Source: Chthoniobacterales bacterium (GTDB lineage Bacteria; Verrucomicrobiota; Verrucomicrobiia; Chthoniobacterales; UBA6821). Taken from it: a stretch of DNA of 64,000 bases. The stretch is from the NCBI GenBank assembly GCA_049314455.1, contig JBMOFC010000005.1, positions 5,095 through 69,094 of the forward strand, read 5' to 3'. The notes beneath the pieces were generated by a model. The model was not told where the DNA came from. It worked only from the letters and a program-made list of their open reading frames with translations, and made no database searches. The position numbers and the translations under genes are program-made. Shown piece after piece: positions 412 to 63,700 of this stretch (its first letter is position 1; every line of letters starts with the position of its first letter).

Positions 412-584
412 ATTGATTTAAAATTCTACTGAGGCTGTCCATTGCGGCGGCGCTGCGGTTCTCGTCTCGTCGAGTATTTCCATCTATAATTGGACTTTTG
501 GAGACTATCGACTCCTTGCTCTTAATCTTCCACAGCGAATTTCCAAAGCAATCCCATCATATCCTAATCTTCTGTGAATTTTTC

Positions 585-1982
585 ATGAGCAAGCAAACAA
601 CAGAAGTATTAAAAGATGATTTAATAGCCCTTCTTAGCGATCACTCCTCCCTCATTGAGGATCTAGAACGACGCACAGCATTGGGACATGATGAATGGTT
701 TGCCTCTGCGATGCCAGAAATTGCGGTAGAGCCAGTGACGGCAGAGGAAGTAGCCGCAGTCTTAGCTTATGCTCATGAGCATCGGATTCCAGTTACCACA
801 CGGGGAGCAGGGTATGGTTATGTCGGAGGATGCGTTCCCATCCAAGGTGGAATCTTGCTTTCCACCGTACGGCTCAACCAAATTTTGGAAATTCATCCTG
901 GTGATGGCATCGCAGTCACGCAGCCAGCCGTGATCACCGGAAAACTTCAAGAGGCAGTACGCGCGCAGGGACTTTTTTATCCCCCTGATCCCGCAAGCCT
1001 CGATCATTGTAGTATCGGTGGTAATGTGGCAACCAATGCTGGAGGGCCACGCTGCCTCAAATATGGCGTCACACGTCATTATATTCTAGGACTCCAAGTT
1101 GCCCTTGCCGATGGAACGCTTGTGCGTGTGGGTGGTCGTACACACAAAAACAAAACCGGCTTTGATCTCATTGGAATGTTTGTGGGATCGGAAGGGTTGC
1201 TCGGCATTATCACCGAAGTCACCCTGCGCCTTCTTCCCATGCCACCAGCTCGTGCAACGCTCTCTGCAGGTTTTGCCACCATGCATCAGGCAGCAGCAGC
1301 TGTTCAAGCCATTTTCCGTGCAGGGTATCTTCCCTCAGCGGTTGAAGCAGCTGATCATTTTACACTCGAAGCAGCACGTCGTGATTTAGCAAAAAATCTT
1401 CAAACCCTCATTCCACCGGGACAAGCGCATCTTCTTATTGAAATCGATGGCCAACAAGAAAGCGTCATCAGCGAAACAAAAGCTCTCAAAAAACTGTTAA
1501 TAGAGTGCGATGCACTTCAAGTTGAAGATGCAACCACACCAGAAAGCTGCGATACGATGTGGGCCTTACGACGCTCTTTTTCGATGGCACTGCGCGCGAC
1601 TGGCCTCATTAAACTTAATGAAGATATCGTCGTGCCACGCAGTCGTCTCTGCGATCTGATTGCTTTTACCGAGCAATTACAAAAAGAAAATGGTTTTCCT
1701 ATTGCCTGTTTTGGTCATGCTGGTGATGGCAATATCCATGTCAACATCATGGTCTCGGCTCAGGAACAGCACGATCAGCAAGAAAAAATCGATCGTATGC
1801 TCCAACAACTTTTTCTCCAAATTCTTGAGTGGAATGGAAGTATCACCGGAGAACATGGTATCGGACTGGCCAAGCTACCTTGGTGGAATCTGGCAACCTC
1901 TCCTGAAATACGAGACCTCCACAGCCGCCTCAAGTCAGCACTAGATCCCCGCTATATTTTAAATCCAGGGAAGTTTGTTTAG
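585..1982 (+). CDS. FAD-linked oxidase, GlcD / D-lactate dehydrogenase family
   Basis: FAD-binding PCMH-type N-terminal domain (PVTTRGAGYGYVGGCVP) and C-terminal GEHGIGLAK motif. ATG at 585 is preferred over the TTG at 498, which only adds a non-conserved leader. Confidence 0.75.
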   Translation: MSKQTTEVLKDDLIALLSDHSSLIEDLERRTALGHDEWFASAMPEIAVEPVTAEEVAAVLAYAHEHRIPVTTRGAGYGYVGGCVPIQGGILLSTVRLNQILEIHPGDGIAVTQPAVITGKLQEAVRAQGLFYPPDPASLDHCSIGGNVATNAGGPRCLKYGVTRHYILGLQVALADGTLVRVGGRTHKNKTGFDLIGMFVGSEGLLGIITEVTLRLLPMPPARATLSAGFATMHQAAAAVQAIFRAGYLPSAVEAADHFTLEAARRDLAKNLQTLIPPGQAHLLIEIDGQQESVISETKALKKLLIECDALQVEDATTPESCDTMWALRRSFSMALRATGLIKLNEDIVVPRSRLCDLIAFTEQLQKENGFPIACFGHAGDGNIHVNIMVSAQEQHDQQEKIDRMLQQLFLQILEWNGSITGEHGIGLAKLPWWNLATSPEIRDLHSRLKSALDPRYILNPGKFV

Positions 1983-2154
1983 AGCATTAAAAAGAGTTGT
2001 AGCCGTACATTAGACTTCTTTCAAAACTCGCTGATGGTGATGAAGGACAAAGCGCTCCGGCGCGCAGACCCACAGTGTATAAGTAATACTCGAGGACGCG
2101 AGCACCGAAGTGACGCCGCAATGCGCGATTTTAGACTTTTTTGGACACGCTCTA
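1980..2154. mobile_element. hybrid MITE (family A left terminus + family B/A core), TA-flanked
   Basis: TA-GAGCATTAAAAAGAGTTGTAGCC...CACGCTC-TA. It shares the core GCGCAGACCCACAGTGTA..TACTCGAGGACGCGAGCACCG with copies at 5531, 14498, 17879, 43120 and 51928. Confidence 0.75.
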
Positions 2155-3399
2155 GCCTAAAAACTCTTTAACTATCAACGTCGCATTATGTCCCCCAAAG
2201 CCAAAGGAGTTGCTCATCGCAACACGGACTTTGGTTTCACGGGCTACATTGGGAACATAGTCCAAGTCGCACTCCGGATCAGGAGTTTCTAAGTTGATGG
2301 TGGGTGGAATAATTCCATGCTTGATGGCAAGTACACAGGCGGCTAACTCAATGCCACCAGCGGCACCCAAAAGATGTCCTGTCATCGATTTTGTGGAGCT
2401 GACTGGAACCTTATAAGCATACTCACCCAAAGCACGCTTCACTGCTTTACTTTCACAAATATCACCAATAGGAGTCGATGTCCCATGGGCATTGATGTAG
2501 TTAATCTCTTCAGGATTGACCTGCGCATGACGCATTGCCATCTGCATGCAACGACTTGCTCCTTCTCCCTCAGGAAGAGGAGATGTCATATGATAGGCGT
2601 CAGCACTGAGGCCATAGCCAACTAACTCACAATGAATAGTTGCTCCGCGGCGTTTTGCATGTTCGAGTTCTTCAATCACAAGAATACCGGCTCCTTCCCC
2701 CATCACGAAACCATCTCGATCTTTATCAAAAGGACGAGAAGCTTTTTTCGGTTCATCATTACGTGTGCTCAATGCCCTCATGGAAGCAAACCCTGCAAGA
2801 CCCAATGGAGAAACAGTAGCCTCTGTTCCTCCAGCGACGAAAGCATCTGCATCTCCAAATTTAATAATGCGCCACGCTTCTCCAATCGTATTATTCGAGG
2901 TAGCACATGCTGTCACAATAGACATATTGGGTCCGCAAAATCCAAATTCCATCGAAATAAGTCCACTTGCCATATTGCTAATCATCATCGGAATGGTAAA
3001 AGGAGAAACGCGTGATGGTCCCTTTTCATAGAGACGCTTTGTCTCCATTTCCATACTCTGAAGTCCTCCAATGCCACTCCCAATCATGACTCCAACACGA
3101 TCAGGATCTACTTTTGAAGGATCAAAGCCTGCGTCGGCCAGAGCCATCTTAGACGCTGCCATGGCAAACTGTGTAAAGCGATCCGCACGACGCGCATCTT
3201 TTGGATTCTTAAAAAATTTGACCAGATCGATATCTTTTACTTCTCCGGCAATTTTGCAATCGTATCCTTCTGAATTAAAAGCTGTATAAGGCTGGATTCC
3301 ACTATGACCTTCAGTCAGGTTTTTCCAAAAAGTAGCGACGTCATTGCCAACGGGGCTAACAACACCAAGACCTGTGATAACGACTCTGCGATTGTACAT
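2152..3399 (-). CDS. fabF: 3-oxoacyl-[acyl-carrier-protein] synthase II
   Basis: MYNRRVVITGLGVVSPVGN start, active-site ACATS Cys, and the HxTS / NAHGTST His-His motifs of KAS II, ending GFGGHNATLIV. The start at 3399 is preferred over the upstream hydrophobic extension. Confidence 0.9.
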   Translation of the reverse strand: MYNRRVVITGLGVVSPVGNDVATFWKNLTEGHSGIQPYTAFNSEGYDCKIAGEVKDIDLVKFFKNPKDARRADRFTQFAMAASKMALADAGFDPSKVDPDRVGVMIGSGIGGLQSMEMETKRLYEKGPSRVSPFTIPMMISNMASGLISMEFGFCGPNMSIVTACATSNNTIGEAWRIIKFGDADAFVAGGTEATVSPLGLAGFASMRALSTRNDEPKKASRPFDKDRDGFVMGEGAGILVIEELEHAKRRGATIHCELVGYGLSADAYHMTSPLPEGEGASRCMQMAMRHAQVNPEEINYINAHGTSTPIGDICESKAVKRALGEYAYKVPVSSTKSMTGHLLGAAGGIELAACVLAIKHGIIPPTINLETPDPECDLDYVPNVARETKVRVAMSNSFGFGGHNATLIVKEFLG

Positions 3400-3704
3400 A
3401 AAAAATAAAAAGATTTTCCGAAAGAAAATAATCGCTAAATAGAAGAATGCAACCTTCATCTCAATTTTCTGGAGAAAATTGAAAGGCGTTAACTGACTAC
3501 TAACCTCTACAAGCAGAAAACTAATAGGGATGGAAGGAATGAAAAGCTGCTATGTGGCTGCTGAAGTTGAAATTGAAGTAGGACGCGACTGTTTTTTCTT
3601 GATCCCTTCCATCGCTATTAATTTCTTTTTCAGTTATTTTAGTTATATTGTTAGTTACATTTTTTTTGCTTTTATTCGCGATTTTGTAGAATCTCTTTTT
3701 TGAT

Positions 3705-4407: not shown

Positions 4408-4789
4408 GGGGGCGCACTGGTTTCGACCCGAAGCTGGTTATACGTTCTGCACGCCGAGGATGATCAGTTGGCCTCGTAAAAAATCTGGTCAACCAAATAA
4501 ATGCAAAAAATGCAAATATTGCAGCTAGCTTCGGCGAAACTGCAGCTCTCGCAGCTTAATTAATCTGCGACGTTCTCACACTGATGTCTATTAGGTGTGC
4601 GAGCGACACTAGTAGGCTCGTTTCACGGCGGAGAGACCGCGCTAGGAAACAAGATAATTCGTGGACTCTCGGAGAAGGGTAGCGCGGTGTATCGTAGTTC
4701 TTCTCCTAAATCAAAAATGCACATAAGCATGTAGACGGGCGTATTTGTTAGTCTCGGGCACAGGGGTTCAACTCCCCTCGCCTCCACCA
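4408..4789 (+). ncRNA. ssrA: tmRNA (SsrA)
   Basis: 5' GGGGGCG pairs with 3' CGCCTCC-A-CCA, with a G3:U wobble (alanine identity). T-arm GGGGTTCAACTCCCC. Internal tag frame 4503-4559 encodes AKNANIAASFGETAALAA followed by TAA. Confidence 0.9.
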
Positions 4790-4810: not shown

Positions 4811-4836
4811 GTTGGAGAGCCTACACAACAGGCTTA

Positions 4837-4990
4837 GTTGAAGTTCAAAGTTTAAGTTGAAGTGGAAAAACTAGTTCTTACATTCAACACTTAAACATCT
4901 TTTCAAAAATTACTAAAACACTGGACTGCTAAAAATTTTTTGATATCCGCGAAACGTTCAAAACTTCAACTTCAACTTCAACTTCAACTT
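4837..4990. repeat. palindromic element with GTTGAAG-word arms
   Basis: Left arm GTTGAAGTTCAAAGTTTAAGTTGAAGTGG. Right arm is (CTTCAA) x4.5 at 4964-4990, the reverse complement of the left-arm word. Confidence 0.6.
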
Positions 4991-5018
4991 ACCACCTAAC
5001 CTAATCGCGAAGCGATTT

Positions 5019-6011
5019 ATGCGCCATTTTCAACATCTTCTCGAATCTCACTGGTCGCAAAGTCGTTTTGTCTGTGTGGGACTCGATAGTGAATTGTCCA
5101 AACTTCCCGCTTCTGCGCTACACTATGATCAGGAAGGGAACGTCGATAGTGCTGCAAGCTTGATCGCTTTTAACCGAGCCATCATTGAAGCAACACACGA
5201 TCTTGTCTGTGCCTACAAACCGAACACTGCCTTCTACGAAGCTTATGGAATCGCAGGGATGGTAGCCCTTGAAAAAACAATTTCTCTCATTCATGAAATT
5301 GCACCCACGGTTCCTGTCATTCTAGATGCGAAACGCGCTGACATTGGCAATACTAATAATGGCACTGTGACCTTTGCGTTTGATTACTTAAAAGCTGATG
5401 CGATCACACTTCATCCCTATCTGGGCAAAGAAGCCCTCGAACCCTTCCTAGCGCGCAAAGAAAAAGGGGCTATCATCCTCTGCAAGACCTCTAATGTTGG
5501 TTCAGATGAATTTCAAAATCTCATCGTCAATAGACTTTTTTCCAAACTCGCTGATGATGATGAAGGACAAGGCACTCCGGCGCACAGACCCGCAGTGTAC
5601 AAAGAAGTACCCGAGGACGCGAACACCGGGGTAACGCTGTCATTCGCACCAGCAGTAGAGTTTCGAAAGAAGTCTGATGAAGAGCCACTTTATAAAATCG
5701 TAGCAAGGCGTGTTGCCGAAGAATGGAACGCCAATGGAAACTGCGGTCTTGTAGTCGGCGCCACCTATCCCAAAGAAATCGAAGCTGTACGAAAGATTGC
5801 TCCAAATATGCCACTCCTTATCCCAGGAATTGGGGCTCAAGGAGGGTCTGTCGAACAAACAGTCGCTGCTGCACGCACGCAGCAAGGTACTAGGATGATC
5901 ATCAACTCCTCACGCGGCATTATTTTTGCTTCATGCGAAGAAGATTTTGCAGAAGCTGCACGTTGTGAGACAGAAAAGCTTCATCAGTTGATTCAAAAAG
6001 CAAACTCATGA
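5019..6011 (+). CDS. pyrF: orotidine 5'-phosphate decarboxylase, type 2, carrying a 48-residue repeat-derived insertion
   Basis: VCVGLD, YKPNTAFYE, DAKRADIGNT, KTSN and PGIGAQGG motifs. ATGA overlap with pyrE. 330 aa, against roughly 270-280 aa for type-2 homologues as I recall them. Confidence 0.9.
   Translation: MRHFQHLLESHWSQSRFVCVGLDSELSKLPASALHYDQEGNVDSAASLIAFNRAIIEATHDLVCAYKPNTAFYEAYGIAGMVALEKTISLIHEIAPTVPVILDAKRADIGNTNNGTVTFAFDYLKADAITLHPYLGKEALEPFLARKEKGAIILCKTSNVGSDEFQNLIVNRLFSKLADDDEGQGTPAHRPAVYKEVPEDANTGVTLSFAPAVEFRKKSDEEPLYKIVARRVAEEWNANGNCGLVVGATYPKEIEAVRKIAPNMPLLIPGIGAQGGSVEQTVAAARTQQGTRMIINSSRGIIFASCEEDFAEAARCETEKLHQLIQKANS
5531..5676 (+). mobile_element. family B MITE inserted in frame in pyrF
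   Basis: TA-GACTTTTTTCCAAACTC...GAGTTTCGAAAGAAGTC-TG with inverted termini. 142 nt plus a 2-nt duplication gives 144 nt. A near-identical copy in opposite orientation lies at 51928-52070. Confidence 0.8.
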
Positions 6012-6649
6012 ACCAATCGTCTATTTTAGAGATTCTGCGTAACGTCAACGCCCTCGTTACTGACAGCCATATTGTTTACACCTCAGGCAAGCATGGTTCC
6101 ACTTATATCAACAAAGATGCCCTTTATCCGCACACTGCAGAAACTTCCGAGCTCTGCCGCCTCTTTGCAGAATATTTTGCTCGTGACGCTGTCGATGTTG
6201 TCATCGCTCCTGCGCTAGGCGGGATAATCCTCTCGCAATGGACAGCTCATCATCTTTCTCAACTCAACAAACGTGAAGTCCTCGGTCTCTACGCAGAAAA
6301 AATAGAAGGGACAAAAGACTTCGTTATTAAACGTGGCTACGACAAACTGCTTGCCCAAAAAAATGTTCTCGTTCTCGAAGATGTCCTGACCACGGGAGGC
6401 TCTGTTAAAAAAGTGATCGAGCTCGTACGAACCATGGGAGGTCATGTTGTGGGCCTCGGCGTTCTTTGCAATCGTGGTGGTATTACGAAAGAAGAAGTTG
6501 GTCCTGTTCCAAAACTCCAGGCCCTTGTTTCTATCAACCTAGAAGCCTGGGATCCAGAAGAGTGTCCACTCTGTGCTCAAGGCATTCCGATCAATACCAA
6601 CGTTGGGAAAGGAAGGGAGTTTTTAGAGCGACAGAAGAGAAACCAGTAA
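6008..6649 (+). CDS. pyrE: orotate phosphoribosyltransferase
   Basis: PRPP-binding loop VLVLEDVLTTGGS. Translationally coupled to pyrF. Confidence 0.85.
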   Translation: MNQSSILEILRNVNALVTDSHIVYTSGKHGSTYINKDALYPHTAETSELCRLFAEYFARDAVDVVIAPALGGIILSQWTAHHLSQLNKREVLGLYAEKIEGTKDFVIKRGYDKLLAQKNVLVLEDVLTTGGSVKKVIELVRTMGGHVVGLGVLCNRGGITKEEVGPVPKLQALVSINLEAWDPEECPLCAQGIPINTNVGKGREFLERQKRNQ

Positions 6650-8706: not shown

Positions 8707-8873
8707 ATATACCTTTTGCGGATGATTTTTAGGCATTTTATACGTAGGAGTTATTGTCTCTGTCAAGGCGTTCCGAGCGAGACGCTATGCGAACATAACG
8801 TAAGCGAGGACAACGCAGCCAGAGGCAATAAGAACTAGTAGAAAATCCTAAAAATCATTCGTGAAAGGTATAT
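8707..8873. repeat. family E palindromic element
   Basis: ATATACCTTTTGCGGATGATTTTTAGGCATTTT...GAAAATCCTAAAAATCATTCGTGAAAGGTATAT, about 33-nt imperfect inverted termini. Second copy at 29981-30145. Confidence 0.75.
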
Positions 8874-15950: not shown

Positions 15951-17546
15951 ATGATCACACTCGCTTCTCTCCTCTGTAATTCCTCATGCTGGGCTGTTTC
16001 TATCGATGCGGCCGTTGTTCTTCTCTATTTTGCAATCATTATTGGGATCGGTCTCTATGCTGGCCGCAACAATAAGACATTGGAGGAGTTTGCTCTTGGT
16101 GGTCATTCTATCCCATGGTGGGCTGTGCTTGCTTCTATTGTAGCTGCCGAAACAAGTGCTGCCACGTTTCTTGGAACACCAGCAGAAGGGTACAAGACAC
16201 ATGCTTTTTTCTATGCCCAACTCGCCATTGGAACGGTGCTAGCCCGTATCATCATCGCCTACACCTTCATCGCTCCCTACTACCGCTACAAAGTAAAAAG
16301 TATCTATGAATTTTTGACTGTCCGTTTTGGAACCGCTACTAAAAACACAGCAAGCGCTATTTTCCTTTTCACACGCGTATTAGGAATTGGGGTCCGTCTT
16401 TACTTAGGCGGTCTTATCCTCGTAGTCCTCTGGCATTATTTCTATCCAGGAGCCCCCACAACCCTCTCCCACTATTTCTGGGGTATTTTAATCATTACCC
16501 TCATCACTACCGGATACACCATGGTTGGTGGTATTAAGGCTGTTGTTTGGACCGATCTCATTCAGGCTTCGCTCATGATTGGATCCGTTGCCCTAGCAGT
16601 ATGGCTTCTTCTCAGTCGTATTGGAGGCCTCAGTGCGGTTAAAGAAACATTTGGCAGCTGGGAAAACTTAAAATGGATTCAAAGTGATTGGGATACCACT
16701 ATTCCGTTTGGATCAGCTCTCTCCAAAATGCTTGCAGAACCCTATACGCTTTGGGCCGCTTTTATTGGATCAACTTTTTTGACCATGGCCACTCATGGTA
16801 CCGACCAGGATATGGTACAACGTCTCCTCACTGCTAAAAATGTTCAGAAGTCACGTCTCTCCCTCATTCTAAGCGGCTTTGCAGACATTCCACTAGCATT
16901 AGCCTTTTTAAGTGTGGGCATTCTTCTCTTTGTCTACTACTCCCACGTGGGAGCTCCTGCTATACCCGACAACGAAATTTTCGCCCATTTCATTGTCAAT
17001 AGTATGCCCGTAGGATTACGTGGATTGATTATTGCTGGCGTCTTAGCAACCATGATGGGATCGACCTCTGCTGCTCTCAATGCCCTCGCTACAAGTTTCA
17101 CGACTGATTTTTACATTCCCTACATCAACCCTAAGGCTGATGATCGTGCTTCCATTCGAGCAGCACGTGTGGCCACACTGGTTTTTGGAATCTTGATGAT
17201 TGGTGTTGGCACCATGGCTGCATATTCAGTGCTCCTCAATCCTCGACTCACTATTATTCCGATTGCCATCGGCATCTTGGGATACACCTATGGAGGACTT
17301 CTTGGTATTTTCTTGGTTGGCATGCTCACCACCACACGAGGCCATGATAAGACCAATGTCGTTGCCATGCTCCTCGGAATGACCAGTGTACTCTTTCTCG
17401 GCAAAGTCGAACTTCCTGGCATCATCAACTTCGGTCACTTCATGCCAACATGGTGGCCAGAAATTGCCTGGCCTTGGTATGTTTTCATCGGAAGCATGGT
17501 GACTATTCTCTGCGCACTGCCGTTTAGAACAGAAACCCGTTCATAG
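15951..17546 (+). CDS. sodium:solute symporter (SSS) family transporter
   Basis: About 13 TM helices and SSS-type motifs (GGHSIPWWAVLASIVAAETSAATFLG, GGIKAVVWTDLIQ). Confidence 0.8.
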   Translation: MITLASLLCNSSCWAVSIDAAVVLLYFAIIIGIGLYAGRNNKTLEEFALGGHSIPWWAVLASIVAAETSAATFLGTPAEGYKTHAFFYAQLAIGTVLARIIIAYTFIAPYYRYKVKSIYEFLTVRFGTATKNTASAIFLFTRVLGIGVRLYLGGLILVVLWHYFYPGAPTTLSHYFWGILIITLITTGYTMVGGIKAVVWTDLIQASLMIGSVALAVWLLLSRIGGLSAVKETFGSWENLKWIQSDWDTTIPFGSALSKMLAEPYTLWAAFIGSTFLTMATHGTDQDMVQRLLTAKNVQKSRLSLILSGFADIPLALAFLSVGILLFVYYSHVGAPAIPDNEIFAHFIVNSMPVGLRGLIIAGVLATMMGSTSAALNALATSFTTDFYIPYINPKADDRASIRAARVATLVFGILMIGVGTMAAYSVLLNPRLTIIPIAIGILGYTYGGLLGIFLVGMLTTTRGHDKTNVVAMLLGMTSVLFLGKVELPGIINFGHFMPTWWPEIAWPWYVFIGSMVTILCALPFRTETRS

Positions 17547-17554
17547 AACGAGTA
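17535..17554 (+). repeat. family H hairpin (ACCCGTTC-N4-GAACGrGT) containing the symporter stop codon
   Basis: ACC CGT TCA TAG encodes T-R-S-stop. The 3' arm is GAACGAGT (one mismatch). Confidence 0.7.
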
Positions 17555-17868
17555 ATGGCGTCAATTTAAGGAAATAAGTTGGCAAATTCTTACTTAAAAT
17601 ATACCAACGTCATTTTGTTTCCAAAAAGAATGAACCACAAAGGAAACATAGATGGCACAAAGAACACAAAAATAATTTTTTAATGAAAAAATTATCATAA
17701 ACTTTGAGTTCTAGATTTTTTCTATGGTCTGTATTTCTCGACTTTAAAATTTTTTATAAAAATTTTATCTTTGTGTTTTCTTTGTGCGCCGCTTTAGCGG
17801 CTTTGTGTTCTTTGTGGTGAATTTTTTCTCTCTTGGATACATGGTGACTTAAAATGAGTCGTCCATGT

Positions 17869-18203
17869 ATAGTGTGTTAGAGCGTTTTAAAAAATTCTGT
17901 AGCCGATGCATTGTCAGAACACGACCCGACGGGAGTCGGTTGGGTAGACTGCTGTTAGGCAGACAAGCAGTGTAGCCAGCTATACTTGAGGACGCGAGCA
18001 CCGGAGTGACACCACAAGGCGTGGCTATAGAGTTTTTTAAAATGCTCTAAATCGATAAAGGCACGCTATAAACTGCCTCTTTTTCCTTATAACTGTGTTC
18101 TCAGATCTTACGTTATCTTCAGATAGCGCCTCAATCTTCGGCCCTTGTCCTAAGAAAAAATTTTAGCGCTTCTAGTCCGTCCTTTTCAATTTAAAACACT
18201 ATA
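17869..18203. mobile_element. family D MITE (copy D1) interrupted by a family A MITE
   Basis: TA-TAGTGTGTTA...TTAAAACACTA-TA. Outside the insertion it is collinear with the uninterrupted copy at 51699-51866. Confidence 0.8.
17879..18050. mobile_element. family A MITE (copy A1) with TA target-site duplication
   Basis: TA-GAGCGTTTTAAAAAATTCTGTAGCC...GGCTATAGAGTTTTTTAAAATGCTC-TA, about 28-nt terminal inverted repeats. The empty site in D2 reads GTGTGTTAAATCG with a single TA. Confidence 0.85.
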
Positions 18204-18243
18204 AATAAAAATTGAATAAATCCTCACTTAAGTTGACGCCATT

Positions 18244-18264
18244 GCCCGTTCACAGGAACGGGTA
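18244..18264. repeat. family H hairpin
   Basis: GCCCGTTC-ACAG-GAACGGGTA. Confidence 0.65.
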
Positions 18265-18458
18265 AGAAGATAGAAGTTTGAAGATGGAAGATAGGATCAA
18301 AGCCCTCTTACAAGAATAATTCTCTTTTTTATCTATGTGAGAAGACTAAAACCCCGTCTTCTATCTACCATCACCTATCTTCCTATCCGTTACTTTAAAC
18401 GGATACCTCGCGTAAGCAAATCGAACTCTATCTTCCATCTTCAAACTTCTATCTTCTT
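18264..18458. repeat. palindromic element with GAAGATAG/GAAGATGG-word arms
   Basis: AAGAAGATAGAAGTTTGAAGATGGAAGATAGG ... CTATCTTCCATCTTCAAACTTCTATCTTCTT, about 30-nt near-perfect inverted arms. An H-type hairpin TATCCGTTACTTTAAACGGATA lies inside at 18384-18405. Confidence 0.75.
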
Positions 18459-18476
18459 ATTCGTTCTGAAGAATAC

Positions 18477-19022
18477 CTATTCCCAAAGGAACGATTGGGT
18501 CACCGCCACAATGTGATGATTTGCGATAAGAAGCGCTCGCCAGCAGGTCACGCGACCATTTTCGAGGTAGTCATCACCCACGACTTTAAAAATAGAACAG
18601 ATCGATCCATGCACGTTGGGATAGGTCATCTCACGTGCTAAAACCTCGTTACCAAGACCAGCTTGACGGTATTCAAAACGAATGGTGACCTCTTGAGCTG
18701 GTCCATGATTCCACCAATAAAAGTTGAAATAGTTACCACGGAGCTCATTTCTGTCTACGGACGTTGTCGCAGGCCACATGTAGGAGCGACGCTGAAAGTT
18801 GATGACTTCAGAATGGCTAGGTCTAAAGGTACTCGGATCGTTAAGAAATTGCGTCTCTTTTCGAAAAGCAAAATCACGGTTGATTTGCAACGGCAACACA
18901 TTTGCTTTTTCTAGCTTTACCATCGGAGGCTCAACGGTGGTGCAACCAAATGATAGCAGGCACAATCCTGCTATTAGGCTGGAGGCTAGAGGCTGGATTC
19001 TAGAGGTTAGAGAAAATTTCAT
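18477..19022 (-). CDS. hypothetical lipoprotein
   Basis: MKFSLTSRIQPLASSLIAGLCLLSFGC: signal peptide with an LSFGC lipobox. No domain recognised. An alternative upstream start lies at 19070. Confidence 0.55.
   Translation of the reverse strand: MKFSLTSRIQPLASSLIAGLCLLSFGCTTVEPPMVKLEKANVLPLQINRDFAFRKETQFLNDPSTFRPSHSEVINFQRRSYMWPATTSVDRNELRGNYFNFYWWNHGPAQEVTIRFEYRQAGLGNEVLAREMTYPNVHGSICSIFKVVGDDYLENGRVTCWRALLIANHHIVAVTQSFLWE
18977..19011. repeat. five degenerate GGCTGGA heptamers inside the lipoprotein signal-peptide coding region
   Basis: GGCTGGA GGCTAGA GGCTGGA TTCTAGA GGTTAGA on the + strand, inverted relative to the tract at 19141-19200. Confidence 0.7.
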
Positions 19023-19140
19023 GCTATTGTTTATTTTAGAGGTAGTGATGACTTTTTTATTTCGCCTCAATCATATGAAAAATCGACATCTTCTTTTTAA
19101 GAATTTACTGGATTTTTTCTAAAATAGAACGCTTTCAAAT

Positions 19141-19200
19141 TCCAGCCTCCAGCCTCCAGCCTCCAGCCTCCAGCCTCCAGCCTCCAGCCTCCAGCCTCCA
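19141..19200. repeat. perfect heptanucleotide tandem repeat (TCCAGCC) x8.6
   Basis: Read directly. 60 nt with no interruption, lying between the guaB3-like stop (19218) and the lipoprotein start (19022/19070). Confidence 0.95.
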
Positions 19201-20653: not shown

Positions 20654-21237
20654 CAGAAAGTTGAAGTTGAAAGTTAAAATTGAAGCAGAAAAAGAGCGAT
20701 GCAGTGCCAGAAATGAGAATACAGCTGGCTGAGAGGTCCCTGGGTAGACTATAGTCTTTTAAAAAGAGAAGGGCGCGATAAGACGATGAAATTTTTCTTG
20801 ATAACAAGGCCGAAGAGCGAGCGCTATCTTAAGATAACGTGAGTGATGAGAACGCTGTTATCAAGAAAAAGAGCAAGTTCAGATCGTGCCCTTATGGATT
20901 TAAAAGACTATACATTGAGGCAGCCAAAATTGTGAGCAGGGTTTCGCCAAGCGAATCAACTCAGTATGAAATATCCGGGTTACGTAAGCAACTTCGTAAA
21001 CAATACTCTCCTTTGCTTCAACTCCAACTATTCGCTTCAACTCCTGCGCAGTATGAAATGACGCCATCCTGCGCCTCAGCAGTAGCATCGACTTAAACAA
21101 GCTAAAAGCGTGTTTGAAAAAGAAATAGAATCGATGAAGTGGCAGGAGCGTCGGCGCGCAGCGAAGGAGTGTACTTAAGGTACTCGATGGAGCGAGCACC
21201 GACGCAATGCGCGATTTTAGACTTTTCCAAATACGCT
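20654..21237. repeat. repeat mosaic (fragments of G-word, D, C and A families)
   Basis: GTTGAAGTTGAAAGTTAAAATTGAAGCAG (20655-), a D-like GCGCTATCTTAAGATAACGTGAG, the C terminus CAGTATGAAATATCCGGGT (20962-20980), and an A-related half-copy at 21141-21240 ending CGCTCTA. Confidence 0.6.
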
Positions 21238-22026
21238 CTACTCAGTGCCCCAAAAAATCAACACCCTCCCCCACGTCTCTTTCGCAGCTGGAACAAAGTG
21301 ACGTGTGATGAGCCAGTGGATGGCGGATTCATCAGCCGCTTCGTTGCCAGAAGATTGAGTCATGAGAACATGATGAGGAATACCTGATGGATCAATATTG
21401 ACTGTAAGAATTGTAGGGTGAAGCGGTGTGTTGATTCCGGAAGGCAAGGAAGGATGCCCCAATGTAGAAAGGGGAGTAGGAGCACGTTCAGCACTATTTT
21501 CTAACAAGCGAATAGTCGTTGTTTTGTTGATAGGCGATGATGATGGTGTGGTTTCAATGGAAGCACCATCCCATGTAGAAAGAGGCATCGAAGGGAGTAC
21601 CAATTCATCTATCGGCGGCAAGAGTGATTGCATCTTCCCTGCTTCATGAGGTGGCAACGGATGTAAAATCGGCGGCGGTTGATTCAATTGATAGATCGAG
21701 GCTGGTATTTTAGGCTGATTAGTTCGAACAGTTTTGAGAGGAGAAAAAATAGCAGGGTCGTTGGCTTGCAGCCATGGTGCAAGCTGCTGTGAAGCCGGAG
21801 AATTAGGCACAAGAAAAAAAACTTGAGCTGCAATCGATTTGCTTACATGAGGAGGTTCATAGACAATATTAAAAAAGTAGACGGTCGAAAGATGAAGCAG
21901 TGCTGCAAAAACAATGAACAGCGGCAACGCAATTCTGGGAGCAGTTTTGATGGGCCACTCAAAAAGAAGCTTTGCTAAGATGTCGTGCGTTTTTATGGTC
22001 TCGGCAAGAGAACTATTTTTTTTCAT
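21238..22026 (-). CDS. TonB-like energy transducer
   Basis: N-terminal TM anchor, proline-rich middle (PPPILHPLPPHE), C-terminal domain of about 80 aa. 4-nt overlap with exbD and an exbB-exbD-tonB context. Confidence 0.5.
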   Translation of the reverse strand: MKKNSSLAETIKTHDILAKLLFEWPIKTAPRIALPLFIVFAALLHLSTVYFFNIVYEPPHVSKSIAAQVFFLVPNSPASQQLAPWLQANDPAIFSPLKTVRTNQPKIPASIYQLNQPPPILHPLPPHEAGKMQSLLPPIDELVLPSMPLSTWDGASIETTPSSSPINKTTTIRLLENSAERAPTPLSTLGHPSLPSGINTPLHPTILTVNIDPSGIPHHVLMTQSSGNEAADESAIHWLITRHFVPAAKETWGRVLIFWGTE

Positions 22027-29980: not shown

Positions 29981-30145
29981 ATATACCTTTGTCGGATGAA
30001 TTTTAGGATTTTTTTACGCAGCAGTTTTTGAGGCTAGCAAGGCGTCAGAGTGCGCTGCTGCCGAGATAACAGTAGCGATGACAACGATGCTAGCGCCAAA
30101 AAAAACCAGGTAAATTTCCTAAAATTGATTCGAGAAAGGTATAAT
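29981..30145. repeat. family E palindromic element (second copy)
   Basis: ATATACCTTTGTCGGATGAATTTTAGGATTTTT...TTTCCTAAAATTGATTCGAGAAAGGTATA. Confidence 0.7.
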
Positions 30146-31879: not shown

Positions 31880-31924
31880 CCATTTTCTAAAAAATGATTG
31901 TCCATTTTTTAGTAGTTGAAGTGA

Positions 31925-32188
31925 AAAGTTGAAGTTGAAGCAGAGATTTCAGAACGCCATTGAGACTTTTCTAGCCACAGTACCCGTTCAGCGGTACGGA
32001 CAACAGAACAGCTCGATCCTCGTGCAAGGGCCCCAGAGGGCTCTCAGTATCCGTTTAGCAGAACGGATTAGGCTATAGCCTTACCCGTCTCTTGAACGGG
32101 TACTAGCCACAAAAAAAGGTAGATCTTCGGCACTCGTTTTCTGAATAGACGTTTTCTTGCTGCTTCAACGTCAACTTTTCACTTCAAC
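31925..32188. repeat. family G element (GTTGAAG-word arms) with internal H hairpins
   Basis: GTTGAAGTGAAAAGTTGAAGTTGAAGCAGAG ... CTTGCTGCTTCAACGTCAACTTTTCACTTCAAC. Internal hairpins TATCCGTTTAGCAGAACGGATA (32048-32069) and TTACCCGTCTCTTGAACGGGTA (32081-32102). Confidence 0.75.
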
Positions 32189-32219
32189 TGGATTCGTTCC
32201 TGTGCACGGATACCTTCAA

Positions 32220-43119: not shown

Positions 43120-43343
43120 TAGAGCATTTTAAAAAATTCTGTAGTTGGGTGCATTGTCAGAATACGACCCGACGGGAGTCGGTCGGGCAGACTGCCGTTA
43201 GGCAGCCCAGCAAGGGCGAGGTGAGCTTCGCAAAGCGAGTCAAACGAGGAGCGCAGACCCGCAGTGTAGCCAGCGATACTCGAGGACACGAGCACCGGAG
43301 TGACAGTACAAGGAGCGGCTACAGAATTTTTTAAAATGCTCTA
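43120..43343. mobile_element. family A MITE (copy A2), TA-flanked
   Basis: TA-GAGCATTTTAAAAAATTCTGTAGTT...GGCTACAGAATTTTTTAAAATGCTC-TA. About 52 nt longer internally than A1. Confidence 0.85.
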
Positions 43344-43676: not shown

Positions 43677-44576
43677 TCAGCGTGAACTCACAATCTCGTC
43701 GATCTGCTCTAATGAGAGTTGAGCAGTTGTAGCAATATCTGCATTTGAAAGTCCAAGTTGTTTGAGTTTAACAATCATTTCCACTTTTGCCTTCCTCTCA
43801 CCCTCAGCTAAACCCTCAGCTAAACCCTCAGCTTTTCCTTCACTGAAAGAGGATTCTAAAGTGCTTCTAGAAATCCTCATATCTCCAATGTAGCGCTCAT
43901 AGGCATAGCGCTCTTCTTGTGAGAGATTAAGCAGAGTAAGTGTGTGCGAGGCTTCATGGATTCCTTTGGCTCTGAATTCAGGTTTTACTTCTGATTGGTT
44001 TAAAGCATAGATCCATTCATCGAGTGTATCTTTTATTTTAAGATCAAATCCGCTAATCTTCAGAACGTAGTATTCAGGGAAGACGCGGGAGACTTCGTTC
44101 ACACTTGTAGGGTAGTGCTCTTTTTCTTTTTCACTAAGCTCAAGCCGATCTTTTTTGTGAACTCCGCGAAAATCAGTCGTCCCATGGTAGATATAATCTT
44201 CTCCATGACCTAAGTCGAAGTAGACAATATTGACCGAGATGACGCGTGGGAGATTACCGTAAGGTTCTCCCTCTTTGAGGTGCTCCACCACGACTTTGGA
44301 AACGCCATAAAGCATACGTGAAAGGAAATCCCACTGCCTCTCACATTGAACTTCGATAATGACTTTTTCTCCACCGTTGAGTTGCGCCAAGACATCAACA
44401 CGGTTGGATCTATCCTTGGCATGTTGCTTATTAGACTCGCTCTCAAGCAACGAGATGATTTCGACATCGGTATAAAGCAATTCGGATAAAAATCCTTCGA
44501 GTATCGGAAAATTGGCTTTGCGGCGTAGGAGCGTCTTGATGGCCCAATCGAATTGAATGAGCTTTTTCGGTTTCAT
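43677..44576 (-). CDS. Rpn-family recombination-promoting nuclease / PD-(D/E)XK putative transposase
   Basis: RVDVLAQL.GGEKVIIEVQ core, conserved YVLKI...D..DEWIY.L motif, and C-terminal AEGLAEGLAEG...LGLS...I....LS.EQI tail, as recalled for PDDEXK_2/YhgA-like proteins. Confidence 0.7.
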   Translation of the reverse strand: MKPKKLIQFDWAIKTLLRRKANFPILEGFLSELLYTDVEIISLLESESNKQHAKDRSNRVDVLAQLNGGEKVIIEVQCERQWDFLSRMLYGVSKVVVEHLKEGEPYGNLPRVISVNIVYFDLGHGEDYIYHGTTDFRGVHKKDRLELSEKEKEHYPTSVNEVSRVFPEYYVLKISGFDLKIKDTLDEWIYALNQSEVKPEFRAKGIHEASHTLTLLNLSQEERYAYERYIGDMRISRSTLESSFSEGKAEGLAEGLAEGERKAKVEMIVKLKQLGLSNADIATTAQLSLEQIDEIVSSR

Positions 44577-44647
44577 AGGATTGGGGAGCCTAATCAAAAC
44601 TTGCAAGGAGTGTCAAATCCAATGAGAGAAAGCACTCAGAAGACACG

Positions 44648-47550: not shown

Positions 47551-47832
47551 ACCCAGATATTTCATGTTGATTCGACGCAAGGCGTCGCGCAGCTTGAGGG
47601 AACAAGGCGGGCGATGAGTTGCACCGTTCCCGCCTTCGCGGGAATGACGTGGCTGTATATGTACATATTGACTTGCTTGGCAAAGCTCGTCTCGCCCCTT
47701 TGGGGCTTTCCTTCAGAAAGTCTATCCAGCGCTCTCCCGAGCAGCTGCATTGCCCGAGGAGCAATTAGAGACCAACGCAGTCCCCATCAGGCTCTCACAA
47801 GCTGCAGCAGAATCAGTATGAAATATCCGGGT
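47551..47832. repeat. family C palindromic element (inverted relative to 14297-14497)
   Basis: ACCCAGATATTTCATG...CAGTATGAAATATCCGGGT with a central GTTCCCGCCTTCGCGGGAATGACGTGG hairpin. Confidence 0.75.
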
Positions 47833-49415: not shown

Positions 49416-49596
49416 AAGTTGGAAGAATCTCAATTTTTACAAAAAAATTTAAGTTGAGTTGAAGTGAAAAGTTAAAGTTGAAGCAAAGTTTTGAGCTGTT
49501 AGCGCTATTTATCGATGTTATCTGAGATTTTAAATAAGATACCATAAATAAAAATAATAGAATTCTTGTGACTATCAACGTAGCTAACACAGAGAA

Positions 49597-49660
49597 GAAT
49601 TCACCACAAAGAACACAAAACCGCTAAAGAGGCACACAAAAAACAGAAAGATAAAATTTT
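49597..49660. repeat. family K repeat
   Basis: GAATTCACCACAAAGAACACAAAACCGCTAAAGAGGCACACAAAAAACAGAAAGATAAAATTTT is the reverse complement of 17761-17826. Confidence 0.65.
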
Positions 49661-49723
49661 GGTAACAGCGCAGGTATCTAAAAAAAGCTAGCTATCTCAA
49701 TTTGTTACTATCGTCTATTTCCA

Positions 49724-50084
49724 GGTTTAGGAGTGTAGGGGTTGAGAAGTTTAGAAAATGAGTGAAAGTTGCTTTGTATTCGTTCAGGTAAGCGGAACGC
49801 ACCCGTTCAGGGAACAGCTAATGCTGAAGACGAAAGGGCAGAGAGTCGAATACTCGATGAATAAATTGATCTGCGATTATCAGCATTAGATTCAAACGAT
49901 TGTTTCTTCCTTCTAAAGTGAACTTGCCTATAGCCTACAGCCTTATCCGTTCCTGTGAACGGATACGTTGCTTTTTAGATTCAAAAATGATTTGGTTTCG
50001 CCACAAATGAATTTTTTAAAATTCAAATTTTTACTACTGCTGTATCCTAAACCCCTAAACTCCTAAACTTCTAAACCTCTAACC
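49724..50084. repeat. family F element expanded by an internal family I/H insertion
   Basis: Arms GGTTTAGGAGTGTAGGGGTTGAGAAGTTTAG and CTAAACCCCTAAACTCCTAAACTTCTAAACCTCTAACC. The interior (about 49800-49965) is the inverted counterpart of 63526-63700. Confidence 0.7.
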
Positions 50085-50199
50085 ATCTCACTCTCGATAT
50101 GTTTTGTCATGGAACTAAATTTTTATTTTGGACAAGAGTGAAATCACCTCATTTTTAAAAAGAGCTTGTATTTTGTTTTCATTCTGATTGTGTTGCCTA

Positions 50200-51606
50200 A
50201 TGCAACCATCTCATTCCAAACCAAATTCAATCGTTTATTTTATTGGCTTTACGGCAGCACTGGCAGGTCTTCTTTTTGGACTTGATATCGGAGTTATCTC
50301 CGGCGCCCTGGAGTTTATTCAAAAAGATTTCAGCGTCAGTGATCAGACGCTCGAATTAATCGTGAGCGCGTTGCTATGGGGTGCTGTTTTTGGAACATTT
50401 ATTTCAGGCATTCTTTCCAAGCAACTTGGACGCAAAAAAACTATGCTAGTGAGTGCCTTCATTTTTGTTATAGGCTCCCTTTATTGCTCTATCAGCACTT
50501 CTGCTCATGAGCTCATTGGAGCGCGCTTTCTGCTGGGTATTGCTGTGGGAGTCGCTTCCTTTACAGCTCCGCTTTATCTGTCAGAAATTTCTCCACAGCG
50601 AGTCCGTGGAAGTATGATTTCTATGTACCAACTCATGATCACCATCGGAATCATGCTAGCCTATTTCAGTAATATGTTTTTTGGAACAACTGCGGTCATC
50701 GATCATCAAATAGGAGGACATTGGCGCGTTATGTTAGGGGTGATTGCGTTTCCTGCTATTTTGATGTTTTTAGGAATGCTCCTCCTTCCAGAAAGTCCAC
50801 GTTGGCTTTTTCTTAACGGCTTTCATGAACGAGGTGCCGATGTTTTCCGAAAAATGCTCCTTCCAGAAGAAGAAATTGCCCGTGAGGTTGCAGAAATCGA
50901 AAACAATCTACGACAAAAACAAAACGGCTTTCATTTGCTTTTTAGCAATTCTCATTTTCGCCGTGCTATTTTTCTTGGTATTGCCCTTCAATTTATTCAA
51001 CAGCTAACCGGCATTAATGTTGTCATGTACTATGCTCCGCGTATTTTTAAGATTGCTGGCTTTGCGAGTACTTCAGGGCAGATGTGGGGAACCATTATTG
51101 TCGGTATTACCAATATGCTAGCGACCTTCATTGCCATTGCTTTTGTGGATAAGCTCGGTCGCAAACCAATGATGTATGCTGGCTTCGTAGTCATGGGCCT
51201 TTCGATGTTAGCCGTGGGAGCTTTTTTTAATATGAACCTCGAGCAATCTCCTGTTCTTGGCTACTATGCCATCACAGCATTACTACTTTTTATCATTGGC
51301 TTTGCTATGAGCGCAGGTCCCATCATTTGGATCATCTGTTCGGAAATTTTTCCGCTGGGAGGACGTGATCTTGGAATTACCTTTAGCACTTCAGCAAATT
51401 GGATTTCCAATGCCATTATTGGAGGAACCTTTTTAACAATGCTTTCTAAATTAGGAAATGGGAATACGTTTCTCTGTTACGGTGGTATTCAAGCCCTATT
51501 TATCCTTTTCTTTATTCTCTTTGTTCCTGAAACCAAAGGAGTCTCTCTAGAACATATTGAAAGCAATTTGCTCTCTGGAAAATCACTTCGGAAGATAGGG
51601 AAGTAA
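50200..51606 (+). CDS. MFS sugar porter (GalP/XylE-like sugar:H+ symporter)
   Basis: GFLFGLDIGVISGA, GRKKTM, PESPRWL and PETKG signatures. 12 TM helices. Confidence 0.85.
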   Translation: MQPSHSKPNSIVYFIGFTAALAGLLFGLDIGVISGALEFIQKDFSVSDQTLELIVSALLWGAVFGTFISGILSKQLGRKKTMLVSAFIFVIGSLYCSISTSAHELIGARFLLGIAVGVASFTAPLYLSEISPQRVRGSMISMYQLMITIGIMLAYFSNMFFGTTAVIDHQIGGHWRVMLGVIAFPAILMFLGMLLLPESPRWLFLNGFHERGADVFRKMLLPEEEIAREVAEIENNLRQKQNGFHLLFSNSHFRRAIFLGIALQFIQQLTGINVVMYYAPRIFKIAGFASTSGQMWGTIIVGITNMLATFIAIAFVDKLGRKPMMYAGFVVMGLSMLAVGAFFNMNLEQSPVLGYYAITALLLFIIGFAMSAGPIIWIICSEIFPLGGRDLGITFSTSANWISNAIIGGTFLTMLSKLGNGNTFLCYGGIQALFILFFILFVPETKGVSLEHIESNLLSGKSLRKIGK

Positions 51607-51698
51607 TTTGGGTTGCTTTTGCATCCAAAATTATTATTGAAGTGACAAGTTGAAGTCAAAACAGCAAAAAAGATAATTTGTTGTCGACTGCCTTATTT

Positions 51699-51866
51699 TA
51701 TAGTGTGTTAAATCGATAAAGGCACGCTATAAGCTGGATCTTTTCCCTTATGAATACGTTCTCAGATCTTACGTTATCTTCAGATAGCGCCTCAATCTTC
51801 GGCCCCCTTGTCCTAAGAAAAAATTTCAGCGCTTCTAGTGCGCCCTTTTCAATTTAAAACACTATA
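51699..51866. mobile_element. family D MITE, uninterrupted copy (D2)
   Basis: TA-TAGTGTGTTAAATCGATAAAGGCACGCTATAAGC...CAATTTAAAACACTA-TA. Confidence 0.8.
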
Positions 51867-51927
51867 TCTGAAGCCCGCAGTCTGCAGCCGTATTCATTCA
51901 CAGGAATGGAATAGGAAGATGAAAAAG

Positions 51928-52070
51928 TAGATTTCTTTCGAAATTCTACTGCTGATACGAACAACAGTATTGCTCCGGTGCTCGCGCCCTCGAGTACCTC
52001 TTTGTATACTGTGAGTCTGCGCGCCGAAGCGCCTTGTTCTTCATCATCAGCGAGTTTCGAAAGAAATCTA
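51928..52070 (-). mobile_element. family B MITE, intergenic copy (B2)
   Basis: TA-GATTTCTTTCGAAATTC...GAGTTTCGAAAGAAATC-TA. Its reverse complement aligns along the whole pyrF insert. Confidence 0.8.
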
Positions 52071-52174
52071 GTGTCGTAAAAGAAACGCAAGGAGAGCCAA
52101 AAAGTGAATTTTCGGTACCAGTTACCGAACAGATACGTTTTTGCTGCTTCAACTTCAACTTGTCACTTCAACTG

Positions 52175-54804: not shown

Positions 54805-54929
54805 TACTTATTAAAGAGAAATTAGTTAGGAAAAATACTAAATCATCAATCGTGAAGGAAAACAAAATTTAAAAAAATATTTACCGAAGGTATTGAGTCT
54901 TATCTTCCACTACTAATGTCCTTGATGAA

Positions 54930-55236
54930 GTCGGTAATTAGAGTCTGTCCCAAAGTTAACTGGTTTTAAAAAGTGATTTCTTATTCTTCTTGATTACCCA
55001 ATTTACTCTAAACAAGGCAGTGGGGAACGGGCTGCAGACTACAGGTGAAGCATCTTGTCTTCAGCAATAATAAAAAACGACATCATGATAACACATCAAT
55101 TTTGAAGAAAATATTGTTTTTGGTGTTTTATAATTTTGTCAAAGACCTCATTTTTACCTGAAGCCTGCAGTCTGTTCCCTGATACCTTAGGCCTTGTTCC
55201 AAACAATGATTTTTTGGGACAGGCTCTAATTACGAC
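54930..55236. repeat. family N palindromic element between the GH paralogues
   Basis: GTCGGTAATTAGAGTCTGTCCCAAA ... TTTGGGACAGGCTCTAATTACGAC termini. Internal inverted pair GGGCTGCAGACTACAGGTGAAGC / CCTGAAGCCTGCAGTCTG. Confidence 0.7.
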
Positions 55237-55280
55237 ACCACAATTTCCAACAGCACCCTGATATCTCTTTTTAAAATGAT

Positions 55281-63527: not shown

Positions 63528-63700
63528 GGCTGTAGACGATAGGCTGTAGGCTGTAGGAAAATTCACTTCAGAAGAAAGAAACAATTTTTGGTAGTCCAAT
63601 ATTTATAATCGTAGATCAATTTATTCATCGAGCGTTCCATTCAATACTCTGATCTTTATAGTCTTTAGCCTACAGCCTTACCCGTTCTCTGGACGGGTAC
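63526..63700. repeat. family I element (GGCTGTAG-word arms) ending in an H hairpin
   Basis: AAGGCTGTAGACGATAGGCTGTAGGCTGTAGG ... AGCCTACAGCCTTACCCGTTCTCTGGACGGGTAC. The interior matches the inverted sequence at about 49800-49965. Confidence 0.7.

Follow-up and report, generated by a model that had tools for sequence, protein, structure and literature searches.

Nested TA-flanked miniature elements in a verrucomicrobial intergenic spacer: a filled and an empty site in one 64-kb window and a probable link to IS630-type transposition

How does the gap between two convergent genes come to be filled with repeats? The question is raised by a 930-nt spacer in a 64,000-nt stretch of contig JBMOFC010000005.1 (assembly GCA_049314455.1, a Chthoniobacterales bacterium), called the window here. 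A sodium:solute symporter gene (15951-17546, Pfam SSF) lies on one side of the spacer and a convergent open reading frame (ORF; 18477-19070) on the other. In X1, one of the metagenome runs X1-X3 that hold the window's organism, positions 17570-18416 reach a depth of 40-480, against about 4 on the symporter gene, in agreement with a preliminary description that called the spacer repetitive. With good confidence, the spacer can be regarded as a record of successive cut-and-paste insertions of MITEs (miniature, non-autonomous transposable elements with inverted repeats), probably moved in trans by DDE transposases of the IS630/Tc1-mariner type with duplication of a TA target.

The central evidence comes from reading the D1 spacer directly against the region 51500-52100, which holds a second copy of the same element. 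D2 (51701-51864, plus strand) is an uninterrupted 164-nt MITE of the D family, with flanking TAs at 51699-51700 and 51865-51866 and an internal TA, the target, at 51709-51710. It reads TA-TAGTGTGT-TA-AATCGATAAAGG...TTTAAAACACTA-TA. D1 (17870-18201, plus strand), flanked by TAs at 17868-17869 and 18202-18203, is a D copy split by A1, a 168-nt MITE of the A family (17880-18047, plus strand) lying in the TA at nt 9-10 of the left terminal repeat of D1. The duplicated TAs around A1 are at 17878-17879 and 18048-18049, and the whole reads TA-TAGTGTGT-TA-(GAGCGTTTTAAAAAATTC...GAGTTTTTTAAAATGCTC)-TA-AATCGATAAAGG...AAAACACTA-TA. At the junction, empty D2 has GTGTGT-TA-AATCG and filled D1 has GTGTGT-TA-(168 nt)-TA-AATCG, a single filled/empty pair; without A1, the D1 site would read GTGTGTTAAATCG. 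The insertion aside, D1 matches D2 at 91.8% identity along 158 nt (E 7e-61). As the preliminary description proposed, A1 lies inside D1, D2 is the unoccupied site and the duplication is exactly TA, all of which is read directly from the sequence, and the chronology of D first and A later follows from the nesting. What it observed is real, with slightly shifted coordinates, as its limits for A1 and D1 take in part or all of the duplicated TAs.

A second question is whether D2 might be an excision footprint rather than an empty site, a possibility that the preliminary description itself had raised. D3 (20752-20910, minus strand), a third and more diverged D copy with a TA at both sides (74% identity to D2 over 168 nt; inverted arms of 57 nt, 77%), reads TAGTCTTTTAAATCC at the target position, with one TA. 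The D copy of a Chthoniobacterales metagenome-assembled genome (MAG; locus L004:1545-1780) reads TAGTGTATTAAATGG, the contig ends of other D copies in run X3 read ...ATAGTGTGT followed by TAAATCG, and the terminal repeat of an autonomous insertion sequence (IS) reads TAGTCAATTAAATTG at the same position, again with one TA each. The string TTAAAT, with its single TA, is common to all four. Because every other readable D copy has a single TA, the one-TA state is ancestral and D1 represents the derived, filled state. The footprint explanation of D2 is thereby ruled out.

The next question concerns the enzyme. As noted earlier, the window contains no IS630-type transposase: Pfam found none in 24 ORFs, and tblastn with IS630 orfA/orfB gave only matches with E>1. 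Besides the window, 53 related loci (about 290 kb, numbered with the prefix L) were examined. Inverted pairs of 18 nt that are flanked by TA and lie 0.6-3 kb from each other were sought, which led to an IS at L016:1835-2925 (minus strand) in a related Chthoniobacterales MAG. This IS has two ORFs, matching HTH_Tnp_IS630 (1e-24) and DDE_3 (3e-34), with a run of eight A's between them, and falls within a large ISFtu1-like IS630 clade. The same MAG carries an uninterrupted 918-bp copy (L043:2174-3091), identified as IS630 by its Pfam domains, which is TA-flanked and has the ends TAGTCAATTAAATTGAAAAGGGCAC.

This 25-nt end was compared with every position of the window on either strand. The five highest scores, 19-21 of 25, fell on the five intact D ends, all facing outward and all preceded by TA. 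Five shuffled windows served as a control and reached maxima of 16-18 of 25. Both ends of D2 (TAGTGTGTTAAAT / ATTTAAAACACTA) match the IS630 terminal repeat, the right end of D1 (TAGTGTTTTAAATTGAAAAGGACGG) is also among the five, and the sixth D end is the one that A1 splits. The terminal repeats of D are about 25 nt long (TAGTGTKTTAAATYGAWAARGGCRC; the D-type end is also given as TAGTGTKTTAAATYGAWAARGGC). Additionally, the L016 IS is interrupted by a 165-nt MITE that combines the IS's own ends with a D-type core and TA flanks, and eight further IS copies of this IS630 clade all begin with TAGT directly after a TA. Because its ends match the terminal repeat of real IS630-family elements, D is, by sequence likeness, an IS630-type MITE family.

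The L016 IS also abuts the end of an A-superfamily MITE (L016:2945-3045), which makes a second nest, in a relative, that includes an autonomous element. Two candidate transposases were rejected. In L021, IS630 orfB has a weak tblastn match, but the long ORF around it resembles a sigma-54-type response regulator. The ORF at 43677-44606 (minus strand), a PD-(D/E)XK nuclease 'transposase' (PF12784, 1e-25) 335 nt from the copy A2, was set aside as a mobiliser, as nothing ties this family to TA duplication or to these ends.

Does the A family follow the same rule? A2 (43122-43341, plus strand) is 220 nt long, has perfect 25-nt terminal repeats and is flanked by TAs at 43120-43121 and 43342-43343. 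A1, which runs GAGCG...GCTC with 28-nt terminal inverted repeats that are 89% complementary, is related to it (E 2e-30) and corresponds to the 220-nt form minus 52 nt; the missing stretch is present in A2 and in high-depth contigs of two runs. Altogether the A core matches at eight places in the window; two A-type copies have both ends, and there are three D copies. A TA stands directly before 15 of the 16 genuine A-type ends (GAGCRTTTTAAA) of the window and three MAGs, and TC before the remaining one. TA flanks are likewise present on all D copies and on the B-like copies (1982-2152 and 21104-21238), in agreement with the TA flanks reported for families A, B and D. Around the TA of A ends, the preceding base is mostly C and the following base mostly a purine (C-TA-R), which resembles the preference of IS630 for CTAG targets. 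Strict TA duplication, the C-TA-R context and co-occurrence with D together suggest that A, too, is probably of the IS630 type.

Some insertions also shape gene ends. The genes at 498-1982 (plus strand), 2152-3459 (minus) and 21238-22026 (minus) have TAG stop codons (1980-1982, 2152-2154 and 21238-21240) in which TA is the flank of a MITE and the last letter is supplied by its terminal G (or C). At the element 1982-2152, both convergent genes stop exactly at its ends, as if it had landed in an overlapping CTAG.

The families are abundant beyond these few copies. In run X1, A and D reach depths of 200-480, against about 4 on unique flanks. The range of 40-480 across 17570-18416 indicates tens to about 100 repeat copies per genome equivalent, a figure that includes related genomes. 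A scan of a genome collection (one genome per species, with the source genome outside the collection) with the conserved A core as query returned 24 loci, all in three lake Verrucomicrobia MAGs. In the LacPavin MAG, near-identical A copies occupy many sites and suggest recent activity there. At L006:4888-5043 and L022:3681-3836, two MAGs carry the same A-type copy at the same site with nearly identical flanks, upstream of an ORF whose start we take to read like GroES; either this insertion predates the split of the MAGs or the two genomes are very close.

These observations outline a possible order of events. A 164-nt D element would have landed in a TA of the convergent intergenic region, and an A element would then have landed in the TA at positions 9-10 of the left terminal repeat of D1. 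Because the insertion split the presumed transposase-binding site, D1 was probably immobilised. A1 would have arrived already carrying a further repeat, module E, and would have lost its 52 nt afterwards. On this account, A presumably uses the same kind of enzyme as D, the transposase is or was encoded elsewhere in the genome, and the elements have moved in this lineage.

The interior of the A elements raises a question of its own, as one stretch of about 110 nt is common to elements whose outer ends differ: TAGAGCG.., TAGAGTCTG.., TAGACTGC.., TAGAGGGTGTC.. and TAGAACCCG.. An alignment of 34 A-superfamily members gives a long hairpin of 42 pairs. Pairing is kept in 92.8% of cells, against 78% in shuffled alignments and 30-44% with slid partners, and 26 pairs have changed on both sides, a count reached by 0 of 500 shuffles. 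On the plus strand, G.U pairs are conserved in 30-33 of the 34 members (alignment columns 28-135, 39-125 and 61-77), which become A-C mismatches on the other strand. Their conservation fits the more stable fold of the plus strand of A1 (-76.8 kcal/mol, z = -9.3; minus strand -55.7). The cores of the superfamily are more conserved than its ends, the reverse of the usual MITE pattern. The D core likewise has ends of at least three kinds, and in one case they are identical to those of the IS that hosts the copy. A constant stem, an apical core of about 55 nt and one-strand G.U pairs hint at a role at the RNA level or in single strands, with termini swapped between subfamilies.

Module E is a separate unit. 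Its remnant in A1 (17921-17970, plus strand), recognized by nhmmer with an E profile, is cut by the 52-nt deletion, and the full module sits at the same place in A2 (43162-43245). The module also stands alone at 47662-47751 (minus strand) and lies within the L004 D copy (L004:1627-1700); A1 probably inherited it from its master copy. It is asymmetric, about 85 nt long, and forms 3-4 short hairpins with GAAG, GCAA or GGGA loops. Other copies include L005:972-1060, L013:4451-4542 and 6303-6394, L020:142-233 and L024:6718-6806. In single-sequence folds the stems differ compensatorily between copies; RNAalifold on a MAFFT alignment gave a poor result, with the loops misaligned. Module E lacks terminal repeats and any visible duplication and matches nothing in Rfam. 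Rfam searches at gathering and E<=1 thresholds returned only a transfer-messenger RNA (tmRNA) and matched no repeat.

How deep, then, is the nest? The preliminary description counted three layers of MITEs, the outermost being an element J bounded by inverted repeats. The inverted repeat is real and longer than reported, with 25-nt arms at 17546-17570 and 18227-18251 that match at 88% (TAATGGCGTCAATTTAAG...CTTAAGTTGACGCCATTG). The left arm starts as the 3' half of a hairpin, like those of repetitive extragenic palindromic (REP) elements, that straddles the symporter stop codon, and the hairpin CCGTTCACAGGAACGG (18246-18261) gives its 5' half to the end of the right arm. In each arm, the outer seven bases form half of such a REP-like hairpin, of the pattern CCGTTCnnnnGAACGG; this pattern matches 11 times in the window, in 10 cases at a gene end or between genes. 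Neither arm was found to recur in the window or in the related loci compared at that stage, and J shows no visible target duplication. The count of three nested MITEs is therefore not supported, and J is read as an inverted-repeat bracket joined to REP-like hairpins at gene ends, outside the transposon nest. If layers are counted, the extra one is the module E remnant inside A1, not J.

Similar brackets are common. At least seven other intergenic regions have inverted arms of 25-40 nt beside such hairpins, mostly made of degenerate heptamers and unrelated in sequence, and one arm pair (51637-51670 / 52138-52171) brackets D2. Bracketed regions lie at 4834-5004, 18256-18466, 18976-19197, 31914-32189, 49717-50100, 51637-52171 and 63512-63693. 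Their arms consist of the heptamers AGTTGAA, GAAGATA, GGCTGGA or GGCTGTA or of a GTTTAGG-type short repeat, the unit varying by locus, and similar heptamer runs occur in the MAG loci L015, L024 and L016. The tmRNA gene (4408-4789; Rfam RF00023, 147 bits) is followed by a heptamer-armed inverted repeat. Within the spacer, an internal palindrome of the K type (17625-17827) has arms rich in CACAAAGAACACAAA and a partial copy at 49595-49660 (89.7% over 68 nt). The neighbouring palindrome at 18256-18466 has 39-nt arms of heptamers (GAAGATA GAAGTTT GAAGATG...) that are 95% complementary.

Several results weigh against transposition by IS630-type enzymes. The IS630/Tc1-mariner attribution stands for D through the likeness of its terminal repeats, but for A it lacks a counterpart, since no IS with A-type ends (TAGAGCRTTTTAAA) was found in the 64-kb window and about 290 kb of related loci, a small search space. 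Neither an A-type end pair 0.6-3 kb apart nor an IS630 copy with GAGC ends appeared in the window and the 53 loci. In runs X1-X3 the L016 IS630 went undetected at >=80% identity, only its nested MITE being seen, and in contigs only, at about 4x depth, the locus shows no presence/absence polymorphism and no joints that skip the boundaries of A1 or D1. The inner cores of both the A and D families are better conserved than their termini, which is unusual for a purely selfish MITE. Moreover, TA duplication is not confined to IS630, as 2-4-bp duplications at TA-containing sites have been reported for some IS5-family groups. An IS5-family enzyme (IS427/ISL2-like), or another TA-duplicating transposase, could have moved A and perhaps D; many IS5-family ends begin with GAG, as A ends do, and all fetched IS630 copies start with TAGT like D, not with GAGC like A. 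This is nonetheless unlikely, given the direct match of D to the terminal repeats of IS630-family elements, the strict TA, C-TA-R context and shared genomes that link A to D, and the lack of any IS5-type ORF among the 24 window ORFs tested. A more radical explanation sees no transposons here but terminator or structured RNA modules that recombination or gene conversion has spread, with the TA simply part of the palindrome. The covarying hairpin of the 34 members, the conserved plus-strand G.U pairs, the better plus-strand fold and the conserved inner core would suit such modules. A precise insertion that turns one TA into two inside another repeat would not, nor would copies at unrelated loci, coding genes included, the near-identical copies at many sites of the LacPavin MAG, a D-type MITE with IS630 ends or the absence of an Rfam match. 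If the hairpin had a host or RNA role, this would go together with transposition rather than stand in for it. The RNA-module explanation is very improbable.

The structure of the nest itself could also be explained differently. If J were a third, outermost MITE, D and the internal palindrome would have inserted into it; chance falls far short of explaining a 25-nt inverted repeat of 88% within 1.2 kb, and MITEs do lie between its arms. This is rather doubtful when neither arm recurs in the window or the loci compared, no target duplication is visible, the arms continue into REP-like hairpins at both gene ends, and at least seven other intergenic regions of the window, one of them around D2, have analogous but unrelated arms. 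Another concern is that the metagenome assembly might have joined separate repeats into a chimeric nest. The sequence here is strongly repetitive, and exact X1 unitigs miss parts of it: none at >=99% identity covers 17942-18085 or 18158-18229, and the right-hand joint has no independent confirmation. X1 unitigs at >=99% identity do cover 17797-17902, and hence the joints between spacer and the left end of D1 and between D1 and A1, in the form of a 106-nt unitig without mismatches that is independent of the window assembly. For the right joint, the basis is the window assembly plus the fact that D1 runs on exactly as D2 does; both halves of D1 join as they do in D2, with a clean TA duplication, which is not expected of a chimera. 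A chimera is the least credible of these explanations, and successive insertion of MITEs by IS630-type transposases remains the preferred account.

A further question is where else such elements have gone. Within the A superfamily, a C-type subfamily combines the A core with ends AGACYYCTTTCRAAAYTCGCTG... and is found inside long ORFs without stops. These elements are about 150 bp long and add about 50 residues, with the protein flanks intact. In PyrF (orotidine-5'-phosphate decarboxylase, 5019-6011), a 153-nt C-type element lies in frame at nt 5529-5681 and corresponds to 51 extra residues (171-221), where PDB 3qw3 has two (residues 149-152); both flanks align well. In relatives, comparison with solved structures shows an extra 57 residues in IspG (L034/L033) and about 50 in LeuRS (L018). 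Further in-frame hosts, which we presume by eye from their ORFs, are UvrA (L004), a MiaB-like protein (L011), a metallo-beta-lactamase-fold protein (L021), GspE/PilB (L029/L030), a glucan phosphorylase (L032), ThiL (L035), LpxI (L037), MurB (L038, in the antisense frame) and an acyltransferase (L025/L026). The in-frame cases use at least three frames or orientations. In a DNA-based sample, unbiased towards open frames, 6 of 35 core copies lie within such ORFs.

A1 itself is untranslatable, with stops in all plus-strand frames through the core and, on the opposite strand, a single frame of 65 codons. When the in-frame peptide was searched as a profile against 5.8 billion proteins, it matched 18 short hypothetical ORFs (44-87 aa) and no long host protein. 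Because this search gave short ORFs only, database gene calls do not show the in-frame cases. Some members of the A/C superfamily may persist as inserts of roughly 50 residues that essential enzymes tolerate, namely PyrF, LeuRS and IspG and, from the by-eye names, UvrA, MiaB and others. It is possible, and offered here as a tentative analogy, that the A/C superfamily is the verrucomicrobial counterpart of the Rickettsia palindromic elements (RPEs), its cores being the persistent selected unit and being re-armed with the ends of whichever IS630 transposase is present.

Two other features of the window are recorded here. Another palindromic element of about 165 nt has two copies, at 8707-8873 and 29982-30143, with 32-nt arms (ATATACCTTTTGCGGATGATTTTTAGG...) that are 84% complementary. 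The stretch 53581-56492 (minus strand) holds two tandem paralogous ORFs, 1.7 kb apart and 74-78% identical in DNA blocks; the one tested has a match to the TIM-barrel domain of glycoside hydrolase family 2 (PF02836).

Collectively, the filled site and its empty counterpart, both within these 64 kb, prove the TA duplication, and the link between D and IS630 extends known transposon behaviour to uncultured freshwater Verrucomicrobia. The repeats also matter in practice, as they break metagenome assemblies (depth rises 50-100-fold) and create spurious short ORFs, and their positions at stop codons and inside essential genes affect the annotation of these MAGs. Conserved cores with exchangeable ends, in-frame copies and a covarying hairpin form a pattern that deserves dedicated study.

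Much of this behaviour has precedents. TA-duplicating MITEs, their dependence on IS630-family enzymes and the insertion of one MITE into another (PMC2170065; PMC10969869) are already known; a literature search found no paper on MITEs of Verrucomicrobia. The targets of IS630-family elements are nearly always TA, which is duplicated on insertion (PMC2170065). The family (ISY100, IS630 and the ISFtu1-like elements with two ORFs) and its derived MITEs resemble A and D in the TA target, the 2-bp TA duplication (PMC2170065) and terminal repeats of about 25 nt. The ISFtu1-like copies of the Chthoniobacterales MAG have ends that resemble D ends, and one of them, in a relative, holds a MITE with the IS's own ends. 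The differences are that MITE interiors here are unrelated to the IS, that one interior core is found with several kinds of termini unrelated to each other, and that no cognate IS was found in the window or runs X1-X3.

Correia elements (NEMIS/CREE) of Neisseria are likewise MITEs of about 100-200 bp with long terminal repeats and high copy number, mostly intergenic and flanked by a TA duplication. The likeness is one of description, and the host phylum differs from Verrucomicrobia. The transcripts of Correia elements fold into long hairpins, which are open to cleavage by RNases (PMC10969869). In pneumococci, clusters of BOX, RUP and SPRITE are nested bacterial MITEs too, and because they have been reported, nesting of such elements is already described; in the present case, the intact sister copy within the window adds a clean filled/empty pair. 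RUP of Streptococcus pneumoniae is itself linked to IS630-Spn1.

The brackets invite comparison with REP elements and REPINs, as the CCGTTCnnnnGAACGG hairpin stands at about 10 gene ends of the window, often with inverted partner arms, and provides the setting of the J arms. To our knowledge, heptamer arms that vary by locus beside hairpins are not a described REP feature. A Pfam scan of 24 ORFs revealed no Y1/HUH (RAYT) transposase, and no search was aimed at one.

The in-frame copies find their closest parallel in the RPEs, the classic in-frame palindromic insertions (PMC10969869). The C-type relatives of A1, palindromes of about 150 bp, likewise lie in frame in unrelated housekeeping genes, and the two are likened by behaviour. 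RPEs belong to Rickettsia, whereas the C-type elements occur in Verrucomicrobia, are TA-flanked and belong to a superfamily that also includes ordinary intergenic MITEs, among them the untranslatable A1. The verrucomicrobial elements offer a second independent system, besides Rickettsia, for learning how selfish palindromes become parts of proteins.

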